Below are positions 1 to 8,738 of a stretch of 19,099 nt of DNA, piece after piece; within the stretch, counting starts at the first letter, position 1, and every line of letters starts with the position of its first letter. The stretch comes from a virus. Below the pieces are notes generated by a model. That model ran no database searches and had not been told where the DNA came from. It was given only the letters and a program-made list of their open reading frames with translations. Made by a program: the position numbers and the translations under genes. Location of the stretch: the IMG/VR virus record IMGVR_UViG_3300031673_005827; one strand, 5' to 3'.

Positions 1-1485
1 GAGACCACCGAGGGCATCCGAGAGGTCTGCTACAACGGGGCGGAGTCGTGCCGCGTTGAGTTGGAGCTTCCATTCGTCACGATCGCGAGGTCGCAGAAGG
101 CGGATGGTACTAGCAACGAGATCACGATCGATGGTGGCCCGCGCACGCTGGCGGATTCCAAAGCGTACCTCGCGCAGGTCTTCCCACCGAAGGAGATCTT
201 CTGCTCGACGTTGATCCTTGGCCAGGGGGTGGCCGAGCGCCTGTCCTCCTGGACACCAGGCAACCGAGCCCAGCAGCTCTCTGAGTTGCTCGGGCTCGAA
301 CGTTGGAAGCAGGCTCGCTCTACGCTTGCCCAGGAGCGCAGGAAGCGCACCGGCGAGCTGCAGCAGCTACAAGGGTCCGCCAACACCCTGCGCAATCAGT
401 TGACGCAGCTCAGGGCAACACAGGCCCAAGTGCGTAGGCCGAGGGCCACGATCGTGGCGGAGATGACCACGGCCCAGCAGCAGGAGCAGGCGAGGAGCCA
501 GCAACTCGGCGCGGCCAACTCAAAGGTTCAGGGTGAGTCGACTCGCATAGGCCAGGCCATGGCTAACAAGAACAATACTGAGCGCCAGATTGCACAGCAG
601 AGGTCCTCGCTCCAGAGCATGACTGCGTGTCCGACCTGCAAGAGGCCCTACTCGAAGCAGGCGATTGAGTCTGCCCAGAAGACAGCGGCGAACGCGATCA
701 AGAAGCTCACGGCCGAGAACACTGAGTGTGCTCGGGTCATAGCGTCGAGCACCCTGGCCGATCTGAAAGCTGTGTCTGACAAGCTGCTTGCCGAGATCCA
801 GCACTACCGCATGCAGCTGCAGCAGCTTACTGGTGAGCTGGCCCAAGTAGACGCGGCTACAGAGCAAGTTACCTCGATCGAGCTACAGCTCACCCAGGTT
901 GAGACAGCAGTGGCGCAGACGACAGGCGAGGTTGCTGAGTTGGATCTGCTAGACGCTGCCTTCGCCGAGATCCCAATACGGAAGATGGGGTCGGTGCTGG
1001 ATGCAGTGAACACGAAGCTCGTCGAGATGTGCAACGATGTTTGGGAATCCGAGTTCCTGGCGCAGCTATGCACCGATCGCGAGCTGAAGAAGGGCACGAC
1101 CAAGGCCGAGATCAACCTGCTTGTGCAGAGCCGGGCCGGGCAGTACAAGAAGTCCTCGGTCGGTCAGCGAAGGAAGATCGACCTGAGTATCCAGGCCGCT
1201 CTGCGTGAGGTGCTTATGGGGACCTGGCCGAACCCGGTGCCGATCCTAGTCTGCGACGACGTTGTCGACGTACTTGATCCATGGGCGAAGCGTCGTCTCT
1301 ACAAGAACTATCTGTTGCCGACTGCTCAGGGCTCGGCTGTCTTCGTAATGAGCCCACAAGGAGAGTACCCGGTGCCGGTACGGCGGAAGATCGTTGTCAA
1401 TTACACCGAGAGCCAGGGCTCGTGGATAGGTGCATACAACGAGCCGGAACCAACGAAGCCAATGGTGGTTTTCAATGGGGCGTAG
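1..1485 (+). CDS. SbcC/Rad50/SMC-family coiled-coil ATPase, C-terminal portion. The gene is 5'-truncated by the window edge, since the frame is open from nt 1.
   Basis: The reading frame has no stop from nt 1. A long Q/A/L-rich coiled coil is interrupted by a CxxC zinc-hook-like motif (MTACPTCKRPY, nt ~628-639). An ABC-type signature-like segment (SVGQRRKIDLSIQAAL) and a Walker-B/D-loop-like segment (PILVCDDVVDVLD) lie near the C-terminus. GC3 is high. Confidence 0.6.
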   Translation, partial: ETTEGIREVCYNGAESCRVELELPFVTIARSQKADGTSNEITIDGGPRTLADSKAYLAQVFPPKEIFCSTLILGQGVAERLSSWTPGNRAQQLSELLGLERWKQARSTLAQERRKRTGELQQLQGSANTLRNQLTQLRATQAQVRRPRATIVAEMTTAQQQEQARSQQLGAANSKVQGESTRIGQAMANKNNTERQIAQQRSSLQSMTACPTCKRPYSKQAIESAQKTAANAIKKLTAENTECARVIASSTLADLKAVSDKLLAEIQHYRMQLQQLTGELAQVDAATEQVTSIELQLTQVETAVAQTTGEVAELDLLDAAFAEIPIRKMGSVLDAVNTKLVEMCNDVWESEFLAQLCTDRELKKGTTKAEINLLVQSRAGQYKKSSVGQRRKIDLSIQAALREVLMGTWPNPVPILVCDDVVDVLDPWAKRRLYKNYLLPTAQGSAVFVMSPQGEYPVPVRRKIVVNYTESQGSWIGAYNEPEPTKPMVVFNGA

Positions 1486-2125
1486 CGACTACAAGATGAA
1501 GGCGTTCCACGCGTACTGTGAGTATGCCGCTGGCAACGAGACGAGCATGCCCGAGGATCGGTGGGTTGCGATCTGGTCGGTGATCAAGCACTACGTCACT
1601 GCGGTCATCAAGGGTAAGGACTACAACTGTTCCGAGTTCGATCTCGATGACCACCTGGCCGAGCTGCAGTTGGAGCTATGGTCGAGGCTGTCCCAGCGGA
1701 AGATCCCTTGTGACAGTCCAAGTCTCTTTGTGGGGTCGGTGCGGGTTGTGACACAACAATTCCTGATCGGCAACCATCGGAAGACACAGGCCGAAGAGCG
1801 CTCGCGGGACAAGTACGCCGAGAGCACCGAGCCCGGGCAGGAGCCGAATCTGCACGGCAAGTTGTGGGCCGCGCATCTGGCGGGTTGGCACAAGGATGTG
1901 ATCGCGGAGAAGATGGCAGGACGTGCACGCTTCGACGTCGTGGACTTCGACCTGTGCCGTAACTACGTGGAGCTTGAATGCCGGAACGCAGACTCCAGGA
2001 CGATAGAAGAGATGATCATCGAGACGGGTTACTGGGACCCGGGCTTCATGTACACCTACCTGACTATACTCTACCGTTGGGTCTACTACGACGTGACCTA
2101 CGGACCAGAAGCATTGGTGGCATAA
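1475..2125 (+). CDS. Hypothetical protein that may be a region-2-only sigma-like factor. The start is uncertain: ATG 1475 overlaps the upstream stop, and ATG 1496 is the alternative.
   Basis: High GC3. The segment DLDDHLAELQLELWSRL...PSLFVGSVRVVTQQFLIGNHRKTQ resembles ECF sigma regions 2.1-2.4 (D-L-v-Q-E...W, then an R/N-rich helix). No region-4 HTH is present. The stop TAA at 2123-2125 overlaps the next start (TAATG). Confidence 0.5.
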   Translation: MGRSDYKMKAFHAYCEYAAGNETSMPEDRWVAIWSVIKHYVTAVIKGKDYNCSEFDLDDHLAELQLELWSRLSQRKIPCDSPSLFVGSVRVVTQQFLIGNHRKTQAEERSRDKYAESTEPGQEPNLHGKLWAAHLAGWHKDVIAEKMAGRARFDVVDFDLCRNYVELECRNADSRTIEEMIIETGYWDPGFMYTYLTILYRWVYYDVTYGPEALVA

Positions 2126-2526
2126 TGGGCATGCACATACCAAACGAGGTGTTTGAGATCTTCCACCGCAACAGGGAGCGGTTCGTCACTGCCCTGCACG
2201 CGGCGGTGTTGTTGGAGTGCCCGTTCGACGCGCTGCCGGAGATCTTCGACATCTTCGGAGACGACGCGCTGAAATTTGTCGAGATCTTTTCCGGTCGCAC
2301 AGTCGCGGTGCCGTCTGTTCGTGATCTCGTAACGAAGCTGAAGCAGGTGTCGGTATACACGGCAATGGGCAGCTGCGAGGGTGACAAAGAGAAGATCGAG
2401 CGGGTGGTAGAGCAGGTTGCGACCAGGCTGGGGATGCGCAAGACCGAAGTCCGACAGACCTACATCAACATGAAGAGCCTCATGGACAGCCTGGCTATGG
2501 AACTGAGACCACGCTCTGATGGCTAA
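2125..2526 (+). CDS. Mor/C-family (phage Mu middle/late activator-like) small HTH transcriptional activator. It could alternatively be a sigma region-4-like module.
   Basis: It is 133 aa from the ATG at 2125, which overlaps the upstream stop. The core GRTVAVPSVRDLVTKLKQVSVYTAMG matches the Mor-family G-x-x-V-Y-I-P...R-x-x-I pattern. The C-terminal HTH EKIERVVEQVATRLGMRKTEVRQTYINMKSL matches the Mor family or sigma region 4.2. Confidence 0.45.
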   Translation: MGMHIPNEVFEIFHRNRERFVTALHAAVLLECPFDALPEIFDIFGDDALKFVEIFSGRTVAVPSVRDLVTKLKQVSVYTAMGSCEGDKEKIERVVEQVATRLGMRKTEVRQTYINMKSLMDSLAMELRPRSDG

Positions 2527-3466
2527 GATGAAGAAGGCTGCAACCAAGAAGAAGAAGAAGAAGGCTGCCAAGAAGAAGGCGGCAACGCGGCGTGAGCTTT
2601 GGTTTGAGCAGAAGGCGAAGAAGAGGAAGCAGCCCGATGCCAAGATCTTGAAGCAGCTCGGTGTGCGTACCTGCTGGCTGTGCCACAAACACCTCAACGG
2701 CATAGCTGAATTCGAGAAGCACCTGAGCGAGGATCACGAGACGACGCTGCGTGAGTACGACAAGATGTATCCCGGCCAGTCGTTCTTCATCCCGTTCGAT
2801 AAGCGGGTCACTGGGGATCAGATCTACCGTGCGTACATGTACCGCATGACGAACGGACGCTGGCCTGATTGGTTCGACGGTAACCAGCAGATAGAGATCG
2901 ACAGCGCGGACCCTTCGTTGCTGCGTGCGGCGGCGAATATGCTGCTGACGTACCAGATGCACAGGATCGGTCCGATCATGGAGGCAAGCGCTGTAGCGTC
3001 ACGCAGGATGTTCGAGCTGGCTGACGCATCGGAACTCAACTACGACGATCTGTGGGACTTCATGGGGCACGCCAATGCCCACATCAAGGACGCGACCAAC
3101 GCGATACGATTACTTGCTGAGGTTGTGGAGAAGGCGACGCCCAAGCCGCCCAAAGGTGACGGCGGTACCGTGCGCATGGGTTTCGTAGCAGCTGGCACCA
3201 TCGAGTCTGGTGACAGCACCGACACCGAGGCGCGGAGGCAGGTTGAACAGCGGAGGCATCACCTGACCGCTTCGGTCAGTGAGTTCACCCAAGCCATGCA
3301 GGGATTCCTGTCCGGCGGCCCTGAGAACGGGCCGGACATACCGTCGAAGGTCGAGCGGGAAGTAGCAGTGGAGCAGATCAATGTTAAGGCCCGAGGTCGA
3401 CAGGCCGGTAGTGGGGAAGAAGAGAAATCTCCTCCAGCTGGCACTGACGGCTCACATAAACGGTGA
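2519..3466 (+). CDS. Lysine-rich DNA-binding protein with a C2H2-type zinc-finger pattern. By position it is a candidate terminase small subunit or DNA-packaging accessory protein.
   Basis: The N-terminus MAKMKKAATKKKKKKAAKKKAATRR is histone-H1/AT-hook-like and lysine-rich. The motif CWLCHKHLNGIAEFEKHLSEDH fits C-x2-C-x12-H-x4-H. GC3 is high over most of the ORF but degrades in the last ~25 codons, where the terminase frame takes over. It lies immediately upstream of, and overlaps, the terminase large subunit gene. Confidence 0.55.
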   Translation: MAKMKKAATKKKKKKAAKKKAATRRELWFEQKAKKRKQPDAKILKQLGVRTCWLCHKHLNGIAEFEKHLSEDHETTLREYDKMYPGQSFFIPFDKRVTGDQIYRAYMYRMTNGRWPDWFDGNQQIEIDSADPSLLRAAANMLLTYQMHRIGPIMEASAVASRRMFELADASELNYDDLWDFMGHANAHIKDATNAIRLLAEVVEKATPKPPKGDGGTVRMGFVAAGTIESGDSTDTEARRQVEQRRHHLTASVSEFTQAMQGFLSGGPENGPDIPSKVEREVAVEQINVKARGRQAGSGEEEKSPPAGTDGSHKR

Positions 3467-6398
3467 CGACGAGTTTGTCGCCGGTCTCGACCCGGATCTC
3501 CGCAGAGAGATTCTGAAGGTCTATTCATCCTTCGACGAGGTTGCGAACCTTGTCAGGGCAGAAGACTTCCAGCACCTCCGCGACTCGATTCCTCGTATCG
3601 TTGACGAGCTGATGCTTGATGGCTGGAGCGAGACTGCGGCTGGGATTGTCACACAGGACTACAAGGACATCCCGGTCACACCACGCCAGTTTCTCACTGA
3701 CCCATACTACGCGGGCCGCTTCGGTGAGGGTCTCTACCCAGTCAACTTCCGGGATGCGTGCTGGCTGCTCAACCCGAAGAACCGAGTCTTCGAGGTCGTC
3801 CTCACGGGCTCCACAAGGTGGGGCAAAGACCAGCCACTGACCTCAGAACTGATTACTTCTGGCGGCCTGAAGAAGATGGGAGACATCACTACCAACGATC
3901 TGGCAGCTGGCAGGGATGGCTACTTCTACCCTGTGACCGGTGTCTACCCACAGGGTGTTCGTGACGTCTACACTGTGACGTTCTCTGATGGACAGACGGT
4001 TCGGTGCGGCGCAGAACATCTCTGGTCTGTCTTCACGAAGTCTGACAAGCACTATAGGCGACCCCTGAGAACGAAGACTCTTCGGGAGATTTCATCAGAC
4101 CTGCACTATAGGGACGGCTCTAATAAGTGGTTCGTTCCAGTGGCTAACCCGATACAGTGGCCGGAACGACAACTTCCGCTCCACCCATACCTGGTGGGTG
4201 TGTTGATCGGTGATGGCGGTCTCACACAGAACACGCCAATATTGACGACCTCTGATAGGGAACTTCTGCATTGGGTGGAGGCTCTCTTACCTCCTGGTGT
4301 TCAGGCAAACCACAAAGATCGGTACGATTACTCGCTCTCCTCTGGCACGCGTGGTGGCAAGTCTAATCCGTTGATGCAAGCCCTCAAGTCACTCGACATG
4401 TGCCACCCAGCGCACGAGAAGCGATTACCGAAGGACTACCTCTATGGCAGCGTACAGCAACGGGCGTATTTGTTGCAGGGTCTCATGGATACTGAAAACG
4501 GTTCTGTTGAGCACAGCAACAACAAGCTGGAGTATTCGACTGCGTCGCCACGTCTTGCTGCCGATGTGCGTTTCCTGGTCGAAAGTCTTGGCGGTGTTTG
4601 CAGATATCTTGTTGGTCCTACGGCCGGTCGAGATCGGTATAGGCTGAGGCTGGCACTCCCATCATGGCTCTGCCCATTCCAGCTCACTAGAAAGAAGAAC
4701 CACTACAGGCCGAGGGCTCGATACGCTCCAAGTAGGGCCATTGTATCAGTTGAATACTCCGGTGCGGAAGAGACCCAGTGCATCTCAACGTCCGCGCCAG
4801 GTGGTCTCTATCTGACAGACCATTGTGTAGTCACACATAACACCACCCTGGCTACGATCATGGCCGGGTACCGGATCTATCTACTCTCGTTGCTGAGGGA
4901 CCCACAGGGATTCTTTGGTCTGATGCGTGGATCGAGCATCCGGTACGGCATCTTCAATATCTTCAAGTACAAGACCGGCGACATGCACTCGCGTATCCAG
5001 GCGATCATCGACGAGTGCCCGTACTTCGTGGAGAAGTTCCCTCGGCTGAGTGGCGAGCGCAGCAAGGAGCTGATCCTTCCGGACCATGTGTCGATCGTTG
5101 AGGGCGCCACCGAGCTTCACGCACTGGGTGAAACATTCATCGGCGGTATTCTCGACGAGGTCAACTTCATGCGCTCGGCTAAGGGCCGAAGCAGGGCGCA
5201 TGCAGAGGAATCGCTGGGTCAGGCGCAGAAGCTGTACGGCGCGATCCGAGGACGCCTCCGCAACCAGTTCGTAGCCAGCCCTGGCTCGGCCGCGCCATAC
5301 TTCATGTGCCTGCTCTCGCAGCGACGCGCCCAGACTGACTTCCTCGAAGAGCACATTACGAAGCACGGCCACGAGGACGGTGTCGCGGTAATTTCTCGTG
5401 CCATATGGGACGTTCAGCCCGAGGGCACATACAAGAGCGGAAGGACGTTCCGGGTCTTCTGTGGCGACGACACTGCGGAGCCTCGTATTCTCGTGGAGGG
5501 CGAGGACGAGGCTGACCAGGTAGACGAGGCCAATGTGATCACGGCCCCGTTGGAGCACAAGCCCGACGCCGAAAACAACATCGAAGACTTCATCCGCAAT
5601 ATCGCTGGGCGTGCGACGGTTGCGGCGAGCGGGTTGTTCCACAGGCCGGAAGTCATATACAACAACTACGACGAGAACTTGGTTCACCCGTTCAAGACCC
5701 AGTTCATGGTGATCTCGACGAACTCGCCTGTCCGCATTCAGGACGCTGTGCGCGAGGACATCATGTTCGAGACACACCTCAACCACTATCGGCCGAGGCT
5801 GCACCCAGAGGCTGGGCGCGTCATGCATATCGACCTTGCGGTGACCGGCTGCTCAGTGGGAATCGCGTGCGTGCACATGTGGACACCGCCACAGGGAGGC
5901 ATGCCGCTCACCTACCTGGACTTCGCATTCCGGATCGATCCGCCTCCGTACGGCCGGGGCGAAGTGGACTTCGACAAGATCATCGAATTCGTTGAGTACC
6001 TCCACCGGAACCATTACACGTTCCAGATGGTCTCCCTGGACAAGTACCAGTCAAGGCACTTCGTACAGAAGCTCCACAAGATGGGCATCGAGGCTGATTT
6101 TGTGAGTGTCGACGAATCGGATGATCCGTATATAAACTTGAAGGGTGTCTACGAGTCCGGGATAATCAGGACGTACCCGTACGAACCGCTCGAAACTGAG
6201 CTGAGGCACCTGTCGCACGACATAACGGCGAAGAAGGTCTTCAAGCCGCTCAGTGGGTCCAAGGACGTGAGCGACGCTCTGTGTGGGGCAGTCTACGGTC
6301 TGATCCCACCGAGGAAGAGGGCCAACAAGTTGGAGATGCAGCAACGGCTACCGGTCGGGGGACTACCGCAGGCACCGGCAATTTTGGTGGGAGGTTGA
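3381..6398 (+). CDS. terL: Terminase large subunit (ATPase plus nuclease) interrupted by an intein in the Walker A P-loop.
   Basis: The extein junction reconstructs a Walker A motif, GSTRWGK|TTLATIMAGY; compare T4 gp17 SRQLGKTTVVAIF. The Walker B motif is GGILDEVNF. The C-terminal region has RNaseH-like nuclease acidic motifs (HIDLAVTG...). A GGAG ribosome-binding site lies 9 nt upstream of the ATG. An in-frame alternative start exists at the ATG at 3612. Confidence 0.8.
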   Translation: MLRPEVDRPVVGKKRNLLQLALTAHINGDDEFVAGLDPDLRREILKVYSSFDEVANLVRAEDFQHLRDSIPRIVDELMLDGWSETAAGIVTQDYKDIPVTPRQFLTDPYYAGRFGEGLYPVNFRDACWLLNPKNRVFEVVLTGSTRWGKDQPLTSELITSGGLKKMGDITTNDLAAGRDGYFYPVTGVYPQGVRDVYTVTFSDGQTVRCGAEHLWSVFTKSDKHYRRPLRTKTLREISSDLHYRDGSNKWFVPVANPIQWPERQLPLHPYLVGVLIGDGGLTQNTPILTTSDRELLHWVEALLPPGVQANHKDRYDYSLSSGTRGGKSNPLMQALKSLDMCHPAHEKRLPKDYLYGSVQQRAYLLQGLMDTENGSVEHSNNKLEYSTASPRLAADVRFLVESLGGVCRYLVGPTAGRDRYRLRLALPSWLCPFQLTRKKNHYRPRARYAPSRAIVSVEYSGAEETQCISTSAPGGLYLTDHCVVTHNTTLATIMAGYRIYLLSLLRDPQGFFGLMRGSSIRYGIFNIFKYKTGDMHSRIQAIIDECPYFVEKFPRLSGERSKELILPDHVSIVEGATELHALGETFIGGILDEVNFMRSAKGRSRAHAEESLGQAQKLYGAIRGRLRNQFVASPGSAAPYFMCLLSQRRAQTDFLEEHITKHGHEDGVAVISRAIWDVQPEGTYKSGRTFRVFCGDDTAEPRILVEGEDEADQVDEANVITAPLEHKPDAENNIEDFIRNIAGRATVAASGLFHRPEVIYNNYDENLVHPFKTQFMVISTNSPVRIQDAVREDIMFETHLNHYRPRLHPEAGRVMHIDLAVTGCSVGIACVHMWTPPQGGMPLTYLDFAFRIDPPPYGRGEVDFDKIIEFVEYLHRNHYTFQMVSLDKYQSRHFVQKLHKMGIEADFVSVDESDDPYINLKGVYESGIIRTYPYEPLETELRHLSHDITAKKVFKPLSGSKDVSDALCGAVYGLIPPRKRANKLEMQQRLPVGGLPQAPAILVGG
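3828..4841 (+). mobile_element. Intein of 338 aa (D150-N487 of TerL) carrying a LAGLIDADG homing-endonuclease domain. It shows a class-3 splicing signature: no Cys/Ser/Thr at position 1 (Asp), Trp at block B:12 (CGAEHLW), Cys at block F:4 (ETQCIST) and Thr at block G:5 (VVTHN|T).
   Basis: It ends ...HCVVTHN immediately before the Thr that completes the GK[T] of the P-loop. Two LAGLIDADG motifs are present: LVGVLIGDGGL (aa 271-281) and YLLQGLMDTENGS (aa 363-375). A block-B-like segment, DGQTVRCGAEHLW, is present. The insert has visibly lower GC and GC3 than the flanking extein, with many A/T-ending codons between ~4100 and 4800. Confidence 0.8.
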
Positions 6399-6401
6399 TA
6401 G

Positions 6402-8258
6402 ATGGCGCAGGCACCGCAGGTGGTCAACGAAGAGATGCGACCCAGGCAAGGCTTTGGGACCCGTATCTACAACTTCATCCGAGGCGTCCTCTATGGAGCG
6501 CCCAAACCCTACATGCGACGACGGGACACCTCGGGGAAGGCTGCCGCGCCGTCGCTCGCGTCTGGCGAAGAAGGCCAGAACATGTACTCGTTCTACGGCG
6601 AGCGCATGCGTCTGGGCAAGACGAGGATGGAGATCTACGACGAGGTCGATGTCATGGACTCGGACGATCTCCCGTCGGCCGTGCTCGACACGTATACCGA
6701 GGACGCAATCCAGATCGACCCGGCAACGAACCGCATGCTCTGGGTGGAGGACTGCAACGAAGAGATCCGCCAGATCTGCGAGGAGTGCATCGAGACCACT
6801 CAGCTCGAAGAGTACGCGCCACTGGTCGGCAGAGGCCTCGGCAAATATGGCGACTTCCCTGTCGAACTCTTCTGGGAGCCCGGTACCGGCATTAGCATGC
6901 TGCGCTACCACCACCCGAAGCGGTTCCGCAGGTTTGAGGACTACGACACCGGAACGCTGCTCGGCTTCTACCTCGGCGAGACTGCTGGTGGTTCCTCGGA
7001 GCCGAACAAGCAGCCGTGGGAGATCGTGCACTTCAGGATCTTTGGATCGCTCTCGGCCATGTACGGCACCACGTTGCTCGTGTCATCTCGCAGGCCGTAC
7101 CGCAGGTTGCGCATGGCCGAAGACGCCGACGTCGTCTACATCCTTCAGCGCCATGCTGACCGCGACGTCTACTACGTCGACTGCACTGGCCTCACTGACG
7201 AGGAGACCTCGGACTACGTCGAGCGCTTCACGACGACGCTCAAGAAGACGAAGTACTACGACCCGAGCAGCGGCCAGCTCCGCGAGGACTGGAACCCGTG
7301 GACGGCGAACGAGGACCTCGTGATCCCTCAGGTGCAGGGACGCGAGACGAAGATCGAACGACTCAAGGGTTCGAGCAACGCGAATGAAGCTACGAACCTG
7401 CACTACTACCTGGCGCGGTATCACGCGTCGGTCCGCATCCCGCCCAGCTTCTTTGGCTACAACATCGAGGGCTCGACACCGTATGACCCCAGCCGGAGAC
7501 TCACACAGCAGGACAGTCGATACGTCCGCATCCCACAGAAGCTGCAGCGGTACTTCCTGCTTGGTGTTCACCGTGTCCTCCAGCTGAACCTGGCGTTTAG
7601 GGGGATCGACCCCCGAGATCCGGACAACCAGTTCACCCTGGCTATGGCGCCGGTCTCGTTCCTCGAAGAGCTGCACCGTCAGCAGCTGATCGAGATCCGC
7701 ATTGACATCATCGATCGCCTGCTCAACCTCGGACAACAAGTCAACTTCGACATGCAGATCTGGATCAAGTACGTGCTCAAGCAGTACGGACACCTGTCCG
7801 ACAGGCTGATCGACGAGTTGATCCTGCCGGGTGCTCCACAGCAACAAGGTGGCGAGCCTGGTGCGCCGCCAGCGCCGCCTCCTGAGATGCCACCGCCGGG
7901 CGATGTCAGTGCCGCCGGTCCGGGGCTGCCTCCGCCGCCGCCTCCGGCCGAAGGACCCTCGGGAGCACCAGGAGCAGAGTTCGAGAAGCTCCGGCCCGAG
8001 CTACGGCCATTGCTCATGGAGTTGGTCACGCGGCTCGGCCGGGTCAACCAGATGATGGAGTCACGCAAGGTCAAGCCTTCCGATGCGAAGCACTTCTTCG
8101 TGAAGGACCTTCGTGAGGACTGGTTCGGGAGGGAAGGCGACGAGGAAGAGGGTTCGGCTATTCCGAGCAAGGACACCAGCGGAGAGCTGTACAAGACTGA
8201 GGACCACCTCGATCTGGCGATGACCATCGACGAGACGAAGGACGAGAATGAATCATAG
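6402..8258 (+). CDS. Putative portal protein. The call rests on position immediately downstream of terL and on size. It has a proline-rich low-complexity segment near the C-terminus.
   Basis: The ORF is 618 aa with high GC3 and starts 4 nt after the terL stop. A proline-rich segment reads PGAPPAPPPEMPPPGDVSAAGPGLPPPPPPAEGPSGAPG. I see no motif that confirms the family without a search. Confidence 0.4.
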   Translation: MAQAPQVVNEEMRPRQGFGTRIYNFIRGVLYGAPKPYMRRRDTSGKAAAPSLASGEEGQNMYSFYGERMRLGKTRMEIYDEVDVMDSDDLPSAVLDTYTEDAIQIDPATNRMLWVEDCNEEIRQICEECIETTQLEEYAPLVGRGLGKYGDFPVELFWEPGTGISMLRYHHPKRFRRFEDYDTGTLLGFYLGETAGGSSEPNKQPWEIVHFRIFGSLSAMYGTTLLVSSRRPYRRLRMAEDADVVYILQRHADRDVYYVDCTGLTDEETSDYVERFTTTLKKTKYYDPSSGQLREDWNPWTANEDLVIPQVQGRETKIERLKGSSNANEATNLHYYLARYHASVRIPPSFFGYNIEGSTPYDPSRRLTQQDSRYVRIPQKLQRYFLLGVHRVLQLNLAFRGIDPRDPDNQFTLAMAPVSFLEELHRQQLIEIRIDIIDRLLNLGQQVNFDMQIWIKYVLKQYGHLSDRLIDELILPGAPQQQGGEPGAPPAPPPEMPPPGDVSAAGPGLPPPPPPAEGPSGAPGAEFEKLRPELRPLLMELVTRLGRVNQMMESRKVKPSDAKHFFVKDLREDWFGREGDEEEGSAIPSKDTSGELYKTEDHLDLAMTIDETKDENES

Positions 8259-8727
8259 GGAGTTGGTCGAGACCGTGGCCGCCCGTTGCGGCGCCCGGCC
8301 CGCCGATATTCATAGAGTCATGCGTGAGCTGGTCTCCGAGGTCCAGCGTCAGCTCGTGCTCGGAGAAGCGGTTTGTGTTACAGGCCTTGGACGCTTCCGG
8401 TGTCTCTCGACGCGATCGCAGCGCGGTGTGTCGAACCTACCCGGGCTCAAGGGCAAGTACGTCTTGCCCCGAGCGAAGAAGCGGATCAAGTTCGTGCAGT
8501 CGGTCAAGGCCACGCGAGAGATTTCGAGCAACGACATTGTGTCAGCGTTCGTGAGTGGTGCACACCTGGTCAGTGAGAAAGCGAGGAAGATTCCTATGGC
8601 CAAAAAGAAGGGGAAGCACATCACGGTTGATGTGCCTCGTGAGGTTGAGTCGGTCACGATCAATGTGGTCGACCAGCAGCCCAAGAAGAAGGGCGAGTCG
8701 TCGAGCAAGAGTCGCCTGCTCGGCTAG
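8248..8727 (+). CDS. HU/IHF-family (bacterial histone-like) DNA-binding protein with a lysine-rich C-terminal extension.
   Basis: The N-terminus MNHRELVETVAARCG...VLGEAVCVTGLGRFRCLSTRSQRGVSNLPGLKGKYVLPRAKKRIKF matches the HU fold signature (MN..EL...vA, GE.V.L.GFG.F, R.GRNP.TG). The C-terminal tail is MAKKKGKHITV...QQPKKKGESSSKSR. Its ATG overlaps the upstream stop (ATGA). Confidence 0.8.
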   Translation: MNHRELVETVAARCGARPADIHRVMRELVSEVQRQLVLGEAVCVTGLGRFRCLSTRSQRGVSNLPGLKGKYVLPRAKKRIKFVQSVKATREISSNDIVSAFVSGAHLVSEKARKIPMAKKKGKHITVDVPREVESVTINVVDQQPKKKGESSSKSRLLG

Positions 8728-8738
8728 AAGGGTCGGTC

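Follow-up and report, generated by a model that had tools for sequence, protein, structure and literature searches.

Class 3 inteins carrying LAGLIDADG homing endonucleases have been described since 2010 in the P-loops of phage terminase large subunits (TerL), and the element reported here adds another. It lies in a viral stretch of 19,099 nucleotides (nt) (IMG/VR virus record IMGVR_UViG_3300031673_005827; the whole stretch is hereafter called the window), in which a 338-residue insert divides the Walker A motif of TerL. In our view this insert, placed at GSTRWGK/T (a slash within a sequence marks an insertion point), is very probably an intein of class 3 type in which a LAGLIDADG homing endonuclease is nested.

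The prototype of the class is the 341-residue "MP-Be DnaB" intein of mycobacteriophage Bethlehem (MP-Be; Tori et al. 2010, PMC2807308). According to that study its splicing strictly depends on Cys320, both His65 and Trp67 are indispensable at 30 °C, and Ile321 and the aromatic residue at F15 also matter. We found this intein in a Bethlehem open reading frame (ORF), GenBank gp11, that adjoins the portal gene; its host protein is also a TerL, listed as TerL1-c by Kelley et al. (2016, PMC5050341). In the Bethlehem genome (AY500153, our L010) it sits at 3261-5972, in a 903-residue "hypothetical protein" directly 5' of the portal gene that we identify as the terminase large subunit; the Bethlehem "DnaB-like helicase" gp62 was ruled out as its host, having 273 residues and no insert. 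The prototype and the window intein have the same HINT-LAGLIDADG-HINT arrangement, a non-nucleophilic residue at position 1 (Pro in the former, Asp in the latter), a block B His-x-Trp, the F4 Cys, the F5 Ile, an aromatic residue at F15, a Thr-His-Asn end and Thr at +1. They differ in sequence (26% identity), in insertion site (…SQDQ/P… in Bethlehem, outside the P-loop) and in TerL family, the two families being unrelated; moreover, the prototype has been tested biochemically, whereas the window intein is known from sequence.

Seven TerL insertion sites were reported in mycobacteriophages, one of them between the invariant Lys and Thr of Walker A, and both splicing and endonuclease activity were demonstrated for several TerL inteins (Kelley et al. 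2016, PMC5050341). The TerL1-a P-loop inteins of that study occupy the same Walker A Lys/Thr site as the window intein. A class 3-type intein at GK/T is likewise found in Kostya gp9 (ARKNGK/ALDVET…HHLW…VCIQ…TPTHN/TELL); like the window intein, to which it is 31.6% identical by tblastn, it has no N-terminal nucleophile and contains a LAGLIDADG domain and the Trp, Cys and Thr (WCT) triplet of blocks B, F and G. It differs in residing in a TerL of the Terminase_1 family, in a phage with an actinobacterial host, and may belong to the TerL1-a group. More recently, 287 class 3 inteins were catalogued in actinobacteriophages, nearly all in TerL and Cas4 (2025 preprint).

Within the TerL family of the window itself (~25-28% identity overall), the TerL proteins of Rhodobacter phage RcTiptonus (L001, 1429-4569), with RcDurkin, and of Gordonia phage Gmala1 (L002, 1204-4323) carry class 3-type inteins at the same K/T or K/S of Walker A. 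These inteins have Arg or Gln at position 1, keep the H-x-W and the Cys, and end in Thr- or Ser-His-Asn, but are only 28-29% identical to that of the window. The RcTiptonus and Gmala1 genes are labelled merely "terminase" or "TerL", one RefSeq copy being called "DarB-like antirestriction", and a search of the literature library used here found no paper mentioning RcTiptonus.

Two further groups resemble the window intein in fold. The DnaBi1 intein of M. smegmatis (6BS8) and the DnaB-1 intein of M. chimaera (6RIX/6RIY) match its HINT part by sequence and structure (27-28% identity over ~95 residues) and share the WCT triplet; unlike it, they are mini-inteins without endonuclease and lie in a bacterial DnaB helicase. 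PI-SceI (yeast VMA1) and the archaeal VMA inteins are the best matches of the whole model (E ~1e-17, TM-score ~0.75), combining HINT with a double-motif LAGLIDADG domain inside an ATPase, but they are class 1 inteins (Cys1, Cys+1), are 14-18% identical and have an extra DNA-recognition region.

An insert in the Walker A motif of TerL

The ORF at 3381-6398 (+) encodes 1005 residues and is annotated as a "hypothetical protein". It is the TerL precursor: tblastn aligns it with proteins annotated as large terminase subunits of phages (28-31% identity), and a T4-type portal gene (6402-8258) lies directly 3' of it. Gene callers also use an alternative start, the GTG at 3411, which yields 995 residues, and the database entry P0112 (from a JGI contig) has this length. 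When terL was compared by megablast with 50,697 phage records there was no match, which implies that no close cultured relative exists. The parts of the gene are as follows.

3381..6398, + strand: TerL precursor (ORF, tblastn, adjoining portal gene)
3381..3827, + strand: N-extein, ending in the Walker A residues GSTRWGK, with Lys149 as the -1 residue
3828..4841, + strand: intein, Asp1 to Asn338, 338 residues (empty-site allele, blastp against the Bethlehem intein, AlphaFold2 model)
4842..6398, + strand: C-extein, beginning TTLATIMAGY, with the remainder of the ATPase domain as well as the nuclease domain

Walker A is interrupted between Lys149 and Thr488 by an in-frame insert of 1014 nt, from D150 (3828-3830) to N487 (4839-4841). 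A preliminary description of this DNA had stated that removal of D150-N487 restores the motif; the translation without residues 150-487 indeed reads ...VLTGSTRWGK/TTLATIMAGY, and a natural allele presented below has the same structure. The other features named there were also seen in the sequence. The first residue of the insert, which begins DQPLTSEL, is neither Cys nor Ser nor Thr; its final VVTHN is followed by Thr; and it holds two LAGLIDADG motifs. The mature TerL would have 667 residues and an intact P-loop.

The insert was further said to be distinct in composition, and this holds. Its GC content is 0.539 and that of its third codon positions (GC3) 0.577, compared with GC3 values of 0.725 and 0.774 for the two exteins and 0.68-0.94 for 13 other ORFs of the window.

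A natural insert-free allele and its flanks

The intein-minus terL allele that the preliminary description proposed to look for exists, and it defines the homing site. BLASTP of the spliced TerL against a large protein collection retrieved P0001 (657 residues), an insert-free protein for which the BLASTP summary gives 100% identity, and which led to two contigs, L004 (ENA ERZ23498717, 47.5 kb) and L005 (Logan SRR7066494). The contigs used in this work were drawn from metagenomes SRR8554511, SRR7066494, ERZ23498717/SAMN08473120, JGI 3300060480 and 3300009529.

Compared with window positions 1-3827 and 4842-16079, L004 and L005 are 99.8-99.9% identical and lack exactly the 1014 nt from 3828 to 4841, restoring GSTRWGKTTLATILAGY. 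The protein across the empty site is GSTRWGK-TTLATILAGY and the DNA is TCA ACT CGT TGG GGC AAG / ACC ACC CTG GCT ACG ATC CTG; the L004 site is TCAACTCGTTGGGGCAAG/ACCACCCTGGCTACGATCCTG, also written …GGCTCAACTCGTTGGGGCAAG/ACCACCCTGGCTACGATCCTGGCC…, and the intein-linked haplotype minus its intein is TCCACAAGGTGGGGCAAA/ACCACC…ATCATG. Whether it was gained or precisely lost, the insert behaves as a discrete mobile unit.

The window and L004 differ by 15 substitutions in 15,044 aligned nt, and 6 of these fall within 20 nt of the junction (40 nt in all; Poisson P = 2.6e-13). Five are in the 16 nt 5' of the junction, every one synonymous, while the sixth, 19 nt 3' of it, changes an amino acid. The two flanks are listed here.

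3812..3827, + strand: 5' flank haplotype tied to the intein, TCC ACA AGG TGG GGC AAA versus TCA ACT CGT TGG GGC AAG in the insert-free allele
4842..4860, + strand: 3' flank as far as the A/C difference at position 4860, where intein-bearing alleles encode Met and the insert-free allele Leu

The intein-linked flank haplotype is common to all contigs that bear the intein (the window, L006, L008 and L013). L007, a more distant relative without the insert that was taken as outgroup, has AAG and a CGN Arg codon, like the empty-site haplotype, and these codons mildly favour import of the intein-linked flank. The clustered substitutions fit co-conversion, with the intein copied in together with a short donor flank, and the window lineage may have gained the intein rather than the sister L004 lineage having lost it. 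The recent invasion suggested by the preliminary description is supported by the low GC3, by presence and absence of the insert in 99.9%-identical genomes and by the clustered flank differences, although the choice of gain over loss is our tentative reading of these data. Furthermore, between the window and L013, whose exteins are essentially identical, the first 600 nt of the intein differ at 40 sites (6.7%), which shows that the intein and its host gene have separate histories and, with the lower GC3, points to a foreign origin of the intein.

Two other differences from L004 were noted. One is a 3-nt (AAG) length difference at ~2546, within a run of AAG Lys codons; it belongs to an unannotated ORF of 315 residues with a Lys-rich N-terminus (2519-3466), just 5' of terL. 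The other is the abrupt end of near-identity at 16079 (window 16079-19099 compared with L004 21655-21974), beyond which a PAPS-reductase-like gene (16095-17108) is followed in the window by a DUF932 gene (17759-18817), whereas L004 has the start of a different gene of 455 residues. This break looks like the replacement of a module between genomes that are otherwise 99.9% identical.

Class 3 signature and fold of the insert

By blastp, the window intein matches the MP-Be intein with E=6e-20 over residues 4-338. A global alignment runs from end to end and pairs His64 with MP-Be His65, Trp66 with Trp67, Cys318 with Cys320, Thr336 with Thr339, His337 with His340 and Asn338 with Asn341; in addition, Ile319 and Tyr328 are aligned to the functionally important Ile321 and Phe330. 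The splicing blocks and the endonuclease elements lie at the following positions.

4017..4025, + strand: block B, His64-Leu65-Trp66 (B10-B12), Trp66 being the "W" of the WCT triplet
4779..4781, + strand: Cys318 (residue 467 of TerL) at position 4 of block F, predicted to act as the initiating nucleophile and aligned to MP-Be Cys320
4821..4844, + strand: block G, His332-Cys-Val-Val-Thr336-His337-Asn338 with Thr+1 (TerL residue 488), from the alignments
4143..4682, + strand: LAGLIDADG homing-endonuclease domain, approximate limits, residues ~106-285 (AlphaFold2 secondary structure, Foldseek, Pfam)
4191..4217, + strand: LAGLIDADG motif 1, LVGVLIGDG, residues 122-130, with catalytic Asp129 (alignment)
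4470..4502, + strand: LAGLIDADG motif 2, LLQGLMDTENG, residues 215-225 (alignment, Pfam)

In TerL numbering the WCT triplet is Trp215 (intein 66), Cys467 (intein 318) and Thr485 (intein 336). The triad had been announced beforehand with its Cys at 468; the Trp and the Thr are where they were placed, but the Cys is residue 467, and residue 468 is Ile.

We then pooled 53 related inteins from two database searches into a family alignment. The splicing residues are strongly conserved in it, with the Trp present in all 53, the block F Cys and the block B His in 50 each and the Thr in 49; the block F Cys is invariant in alignment A2. At the C-terminal junction, His is found in 50, Asn in 48 and a Thr or Ser at +1 in 48 of the 53. 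Position 1 is most often Ala (34/53) and rarely a nucleophile, block A aligning with Ala, Asp, Gly or Glu at this position. The window intein accordingly combines a position 1 without nucleophile with the block B Trp, the F4 Cys, the G5 Thr and Thr+1, and it ends in His337-Asn338 followed by Thr488, a nucleophile. A Thr or Ser at the start of the C-extein is usual, though not absolute, in class 3 inteins (PMC2807308). The sequence features, the end-to-end alignment with the prototype and the HINT plus LAGLIDADG fold all uphold the class 3 assignment made in the preliminary description.

The intein was modelled with AlphaFold2 together with the five extein residues adjoining it at either end; the confident model (predicted local distance difference test, pLDDT, 94.5; predicted template modelling score, pTM, 0.93) shows the endonuclease domain nested between two HINT halves. 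In Foldseek, the whole chain has as top matches the endonuclease-containing inteins TliVMA, PI-SceI and PI-PfuI; the HINT part matches gp41-1 and, among class 3 inteins, MchDnaB-1 and that of M. smegmatis DnaB; and the inner domain matches I-DmoI and the PI-SceI and PI-PfuI endonuclease domains. Intein chains of gp41-1 and DnaB were also recovered by phmmer, and blocks A, B, F and G fall on a HINT fold in the model as well as in the structural and sequence matches. The two LAGLIDADG helices, as seen from the motifs, Pfam and Foldseek, belong to a pseudo-dimeric alpha/beta fold. Motif 1 is canonical (G-D-G): the Asp is present in 46 of the 53 family members, and the Gly-x-x-x-Gly-Asp-Gly pattern is conserved.

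Among Pfam models the sole significant match of the insert is LAGLIDADG_3 (E=2.3e-7, above the cut-off), which falls on the second motif. In NCBIfam the models of DnaB, Tes and GyrA that contain inteins were matched, but weakly, and the two libraries by themselves would have left the splicing domain unclassified. Matches in PHROGs to TerL, DnaC-like, primase and helicase profiles were set aside as uninformative on the function of the host protein, since these profiles contain inteins.

Distribution in TerL and other P-loop ATPases

Among 42 TerL homologues, about 30 are full-length proteins without the insert, and an intein-free Vibrio phage TerL has an uninterrupted GGIGTAKTTLA at the aligned position. 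A related insert occupies the same K/T position in six of the 42 (P0002, P0011, P0016, P0029, P0034 and P0042). A search of the large protein collection with the intein only missed P0002, P0011 and P0016, which were found by the extein search instead; that the nearest TerL inteins were missed presumably reflects a limit of the word index.

Other insertions were seen in the same set of homologues. P0035 and P0037 have an intein of another kind, the Cys1 type, in the same P-loop but eight residues further upstream (…M/CVPGDT…SGN/TGGIGIGKT), and P0008 has a Cys1-type insertion at the G/SKD motif of the nuclease domain.

Beyond the TerL family of the window, the nearest relatives of its intein (35-39% identity) lie at the GK/T or GK/S of PhoH, AAA+, DnaB and Snf2 ATPases, and tblastn found related inteins in 831 phage records. 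The family survey indicates that one intein lineage, typically with an AQPL start and a THN/T end, occupies the GK/T or GK/S of many unrelated P-loop ATPases.

Weighing the interpretation

Several points weigh against the reading of the insert as a class 3-type intein with a homing endonuclease, or against parts of it. Asp at position 1 is rare, being found in only 2 of the 53 family members. None of the Pfam HINT models matches the insert significantly (Hom_end_hint, E=0.23); the splicing domain was assigned from comparisons with single inteins, with the family and with structures. In motif 2, a 3-nt insertion (AAA, 4495-4497) gives Glu-Asn-Gly instead of the canonical Asp-Gly; DTDG stands at this place in 49 of the 53 relatives, and only the window lineage has the extra residue. 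Both motifs are canonical in none of the nine intein-bearing variants examined, and homing may therefore have ceased. Precise loss by recombination with an empty allele is a possible alternative to gain. Finally, splicing, the branched intermediate at block F and DNA cleavage are deduced by homology.

The state of the endonuclease motifs raises the possibility that splicing is intact while the homing endonuclease is already inactive or acts as a nickase, which would concern the mobility of the element and not its identity. We regard this as a serious possibility, if one that we would not call probable. In such a case, general homologous recombination between co-infecting phages would maintain both the presence/absence polymorphism and the mosaic alleles. 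The window-type DTENG suggests that the endonuclease may be impaired, and the allele of L006/P0002, 98.2% identical to the window overall, has a canonical motif 2 but Asp129Asn (GNG) in motif 1. A third allele (P0113, P0116, P0117; contig L013) carries both changes, GNG and DTENG. Aligned to window 3381-6398, L013 (6001-9018; JGI 3300009529) is a clean recombinant of the two intein alleles: it is L006-type at 40 of 40 variable sites in window 3833-4425 and window-type in 4495-4835 and in the exteins, with a breakpoint between 4425 and 4495. Genes for RecA, SbcCD-like proteins and a 5'-3' exonuclease are present on related contigs. Likewise, between the window and L006 the ratio of nonsynonymous to synonymous substitution rates (dN/dS) is higher in the endonuclease region (0.44, from small counts) than in the N-terminal HINT part (0.16) or the exteins (0.19). 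On the other hand, both motifs of the window keep an acidic residue, and Glu is the catalytic acid in some LAGLIDADG enzymes, e.g. I-DmoI. The footprint around the junction (-16 to +19) is very short, as double-strand-break repair predicts, and the endonuclease ORF is intact in all nine variants.

It is very unlikely that the insert splices by another route, either by the direct +1 attack of class 2 or as a class 1 intein with shifted boundaries and Ser or Thr at position 1. Thr5 and Ser6 do lie near the N-terminus (DQPLTS), and class 2 inteins of the KlbA type likewise have no N-terminal nucleophile, but they also lack the WCT triplet that is present here (PMC2807308). The empty site fixes the boundaries at K149/D150 and N487/T488. 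It is this natural marking of the insert ends that identifies Asp1, which does not fit class 1 (Cys, Ser or Thr at position 1), and a non-nucleophilic position 1 aligns with block A across the family; the empty-site allele and the family alignment together rule out shifted boundaries and the class 1 reading. In class 2 inteins, Cys+1 attacks the N-terminal junction directly, whereas the +1 residue of the window intein is Thr.

Still less probable, in our view, is a decayed, non-splicing HINT/LAGLIDADG insertion that makes terL the pseudogene of a defective phage. Splicing is deduced here and one endonuclease motif is atypical, as such decay would have it. However, every splicing residue is intact, the ORF is open in cluster variants from JGI, ENA and Logan assemblies, and the neighbouring genes are intact and syntenic. 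Moreover, the exteins of intein-bearing genomes are under purifying selection (the dN/dS of 0.19 given above) with the intein in place, so TerL would still be functional, which requires splicing.

That the insert is a native accessory domain of the TerL family, as its same position in several distant homologues might suggest, can be dismissed almost entirely: it splits Walker A, about 30 of the 42 homologues lack it, among them one whose exteins are 100% identical, and its nearest outside relatives sit in the P-loops of unrelated ATPases, including PhoH, DnaB, AAA+ and Snf2 proteins. The preliminary description had named such a native domain, present in all homologues, as a refutation of its reading, and the insert-free allele contradicts it.

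Proposed splicing, mobility and possible gating

A class 3-type intein at this site would leave a precursor with a split P-loop, unable to bind ATP normally, and the phage would consequently need protein splicing. A pathway of four steps can be proposed from the homology to its Bethlehem counterpart (PMC2807308). Cys318, positioned by His64 and Trp66, would attack the Lys149-Asp150 bond and form a thioester-branched intermediate; the N-extein would then pass to the side chain of Thr+1 (Thr488); Asn338 (TerL 487) would cyclise and release the intein; and an O-to-N acyl shift would create the Lys-Thr bond of GSTRWGKT in the mature protein. As for mobility, the endonuclease would cut insert-free terL at the GK/TT codons, now or until recently, and repair would then copy the intein together with ~15-20 nt of donor flank. 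We infer both the splicing chemistry and the endonuclease activity from the analyses above.

The intein might also act as a post-translational gate on DNA packaging rather than as a parasite only, although we consider this unlikely. Splicing would hinge on the single Cys467 and would rebuild the P-loop, so that oxidation or metal binding at this residue could keep TerL switched off during stress. A published description presents the DnaB intein of M. smegmatis, also of class 3, as a sensor of oxidative stress (PMC6195587), and the persistence in many samples of alleles whose endonuclease is predicted to be impaired would fit retention for a gating role.

Other genes of the window

Elsewhere in the window, a 900-residue ORF (12095-14797, +) matches the shoulder domain of the major vault protein in Pfam (MVP_shoulder, E=1.1e-17), scoring 64.5 bits where the cut-off is 25, with a weaker match to the Vault_3 repeat. 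It has homologues in L004, L005 and L013, and a vault-protein-like domain is unusual in a phage late-gene region. A small ORF (10430-10963, +) has a C-terminal stretch like the glycyl-radical end of the anaerobic ribonucleotide reductase NrdD, with a match (E=7e-6, 25.4 bits) just below the Pfam cut-off of 26.2.

Significance

The value of this locus lies in natural material and not in a new principle, since it offers intein-bearing and insert-free terL genes in genomes that are 99.9% identical. It provides a defined 40-nt homing site, a conversion footprint centred on the junction and three co-circulating intein alleles with differing lesions in two catalytic motifs, one of them the clean recombinant. 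This set of alleles looks like a snapshot of the homing cycle, with invasion, decay of the endonuclease and possible loss, in an uncultured phage population. For annotation, the "hypothetical protein" of 1005 residues is to be read as a TerL precursor whose mature motor protein has 667 residues.

Distant TerL relatives in proteobacterial metagenome-assembled genomes weakly suggest a proteobacterial host, which would set this intein apart from most catalogued class 3 TerL inteins, these being from actinobacteriophages. Likewise, the occurrence of one intein lineage in the P-loops of so many unrelated ATPases bears on the published idea that inteins switch host proteins by way of shared nucleotide-binding-site codons.

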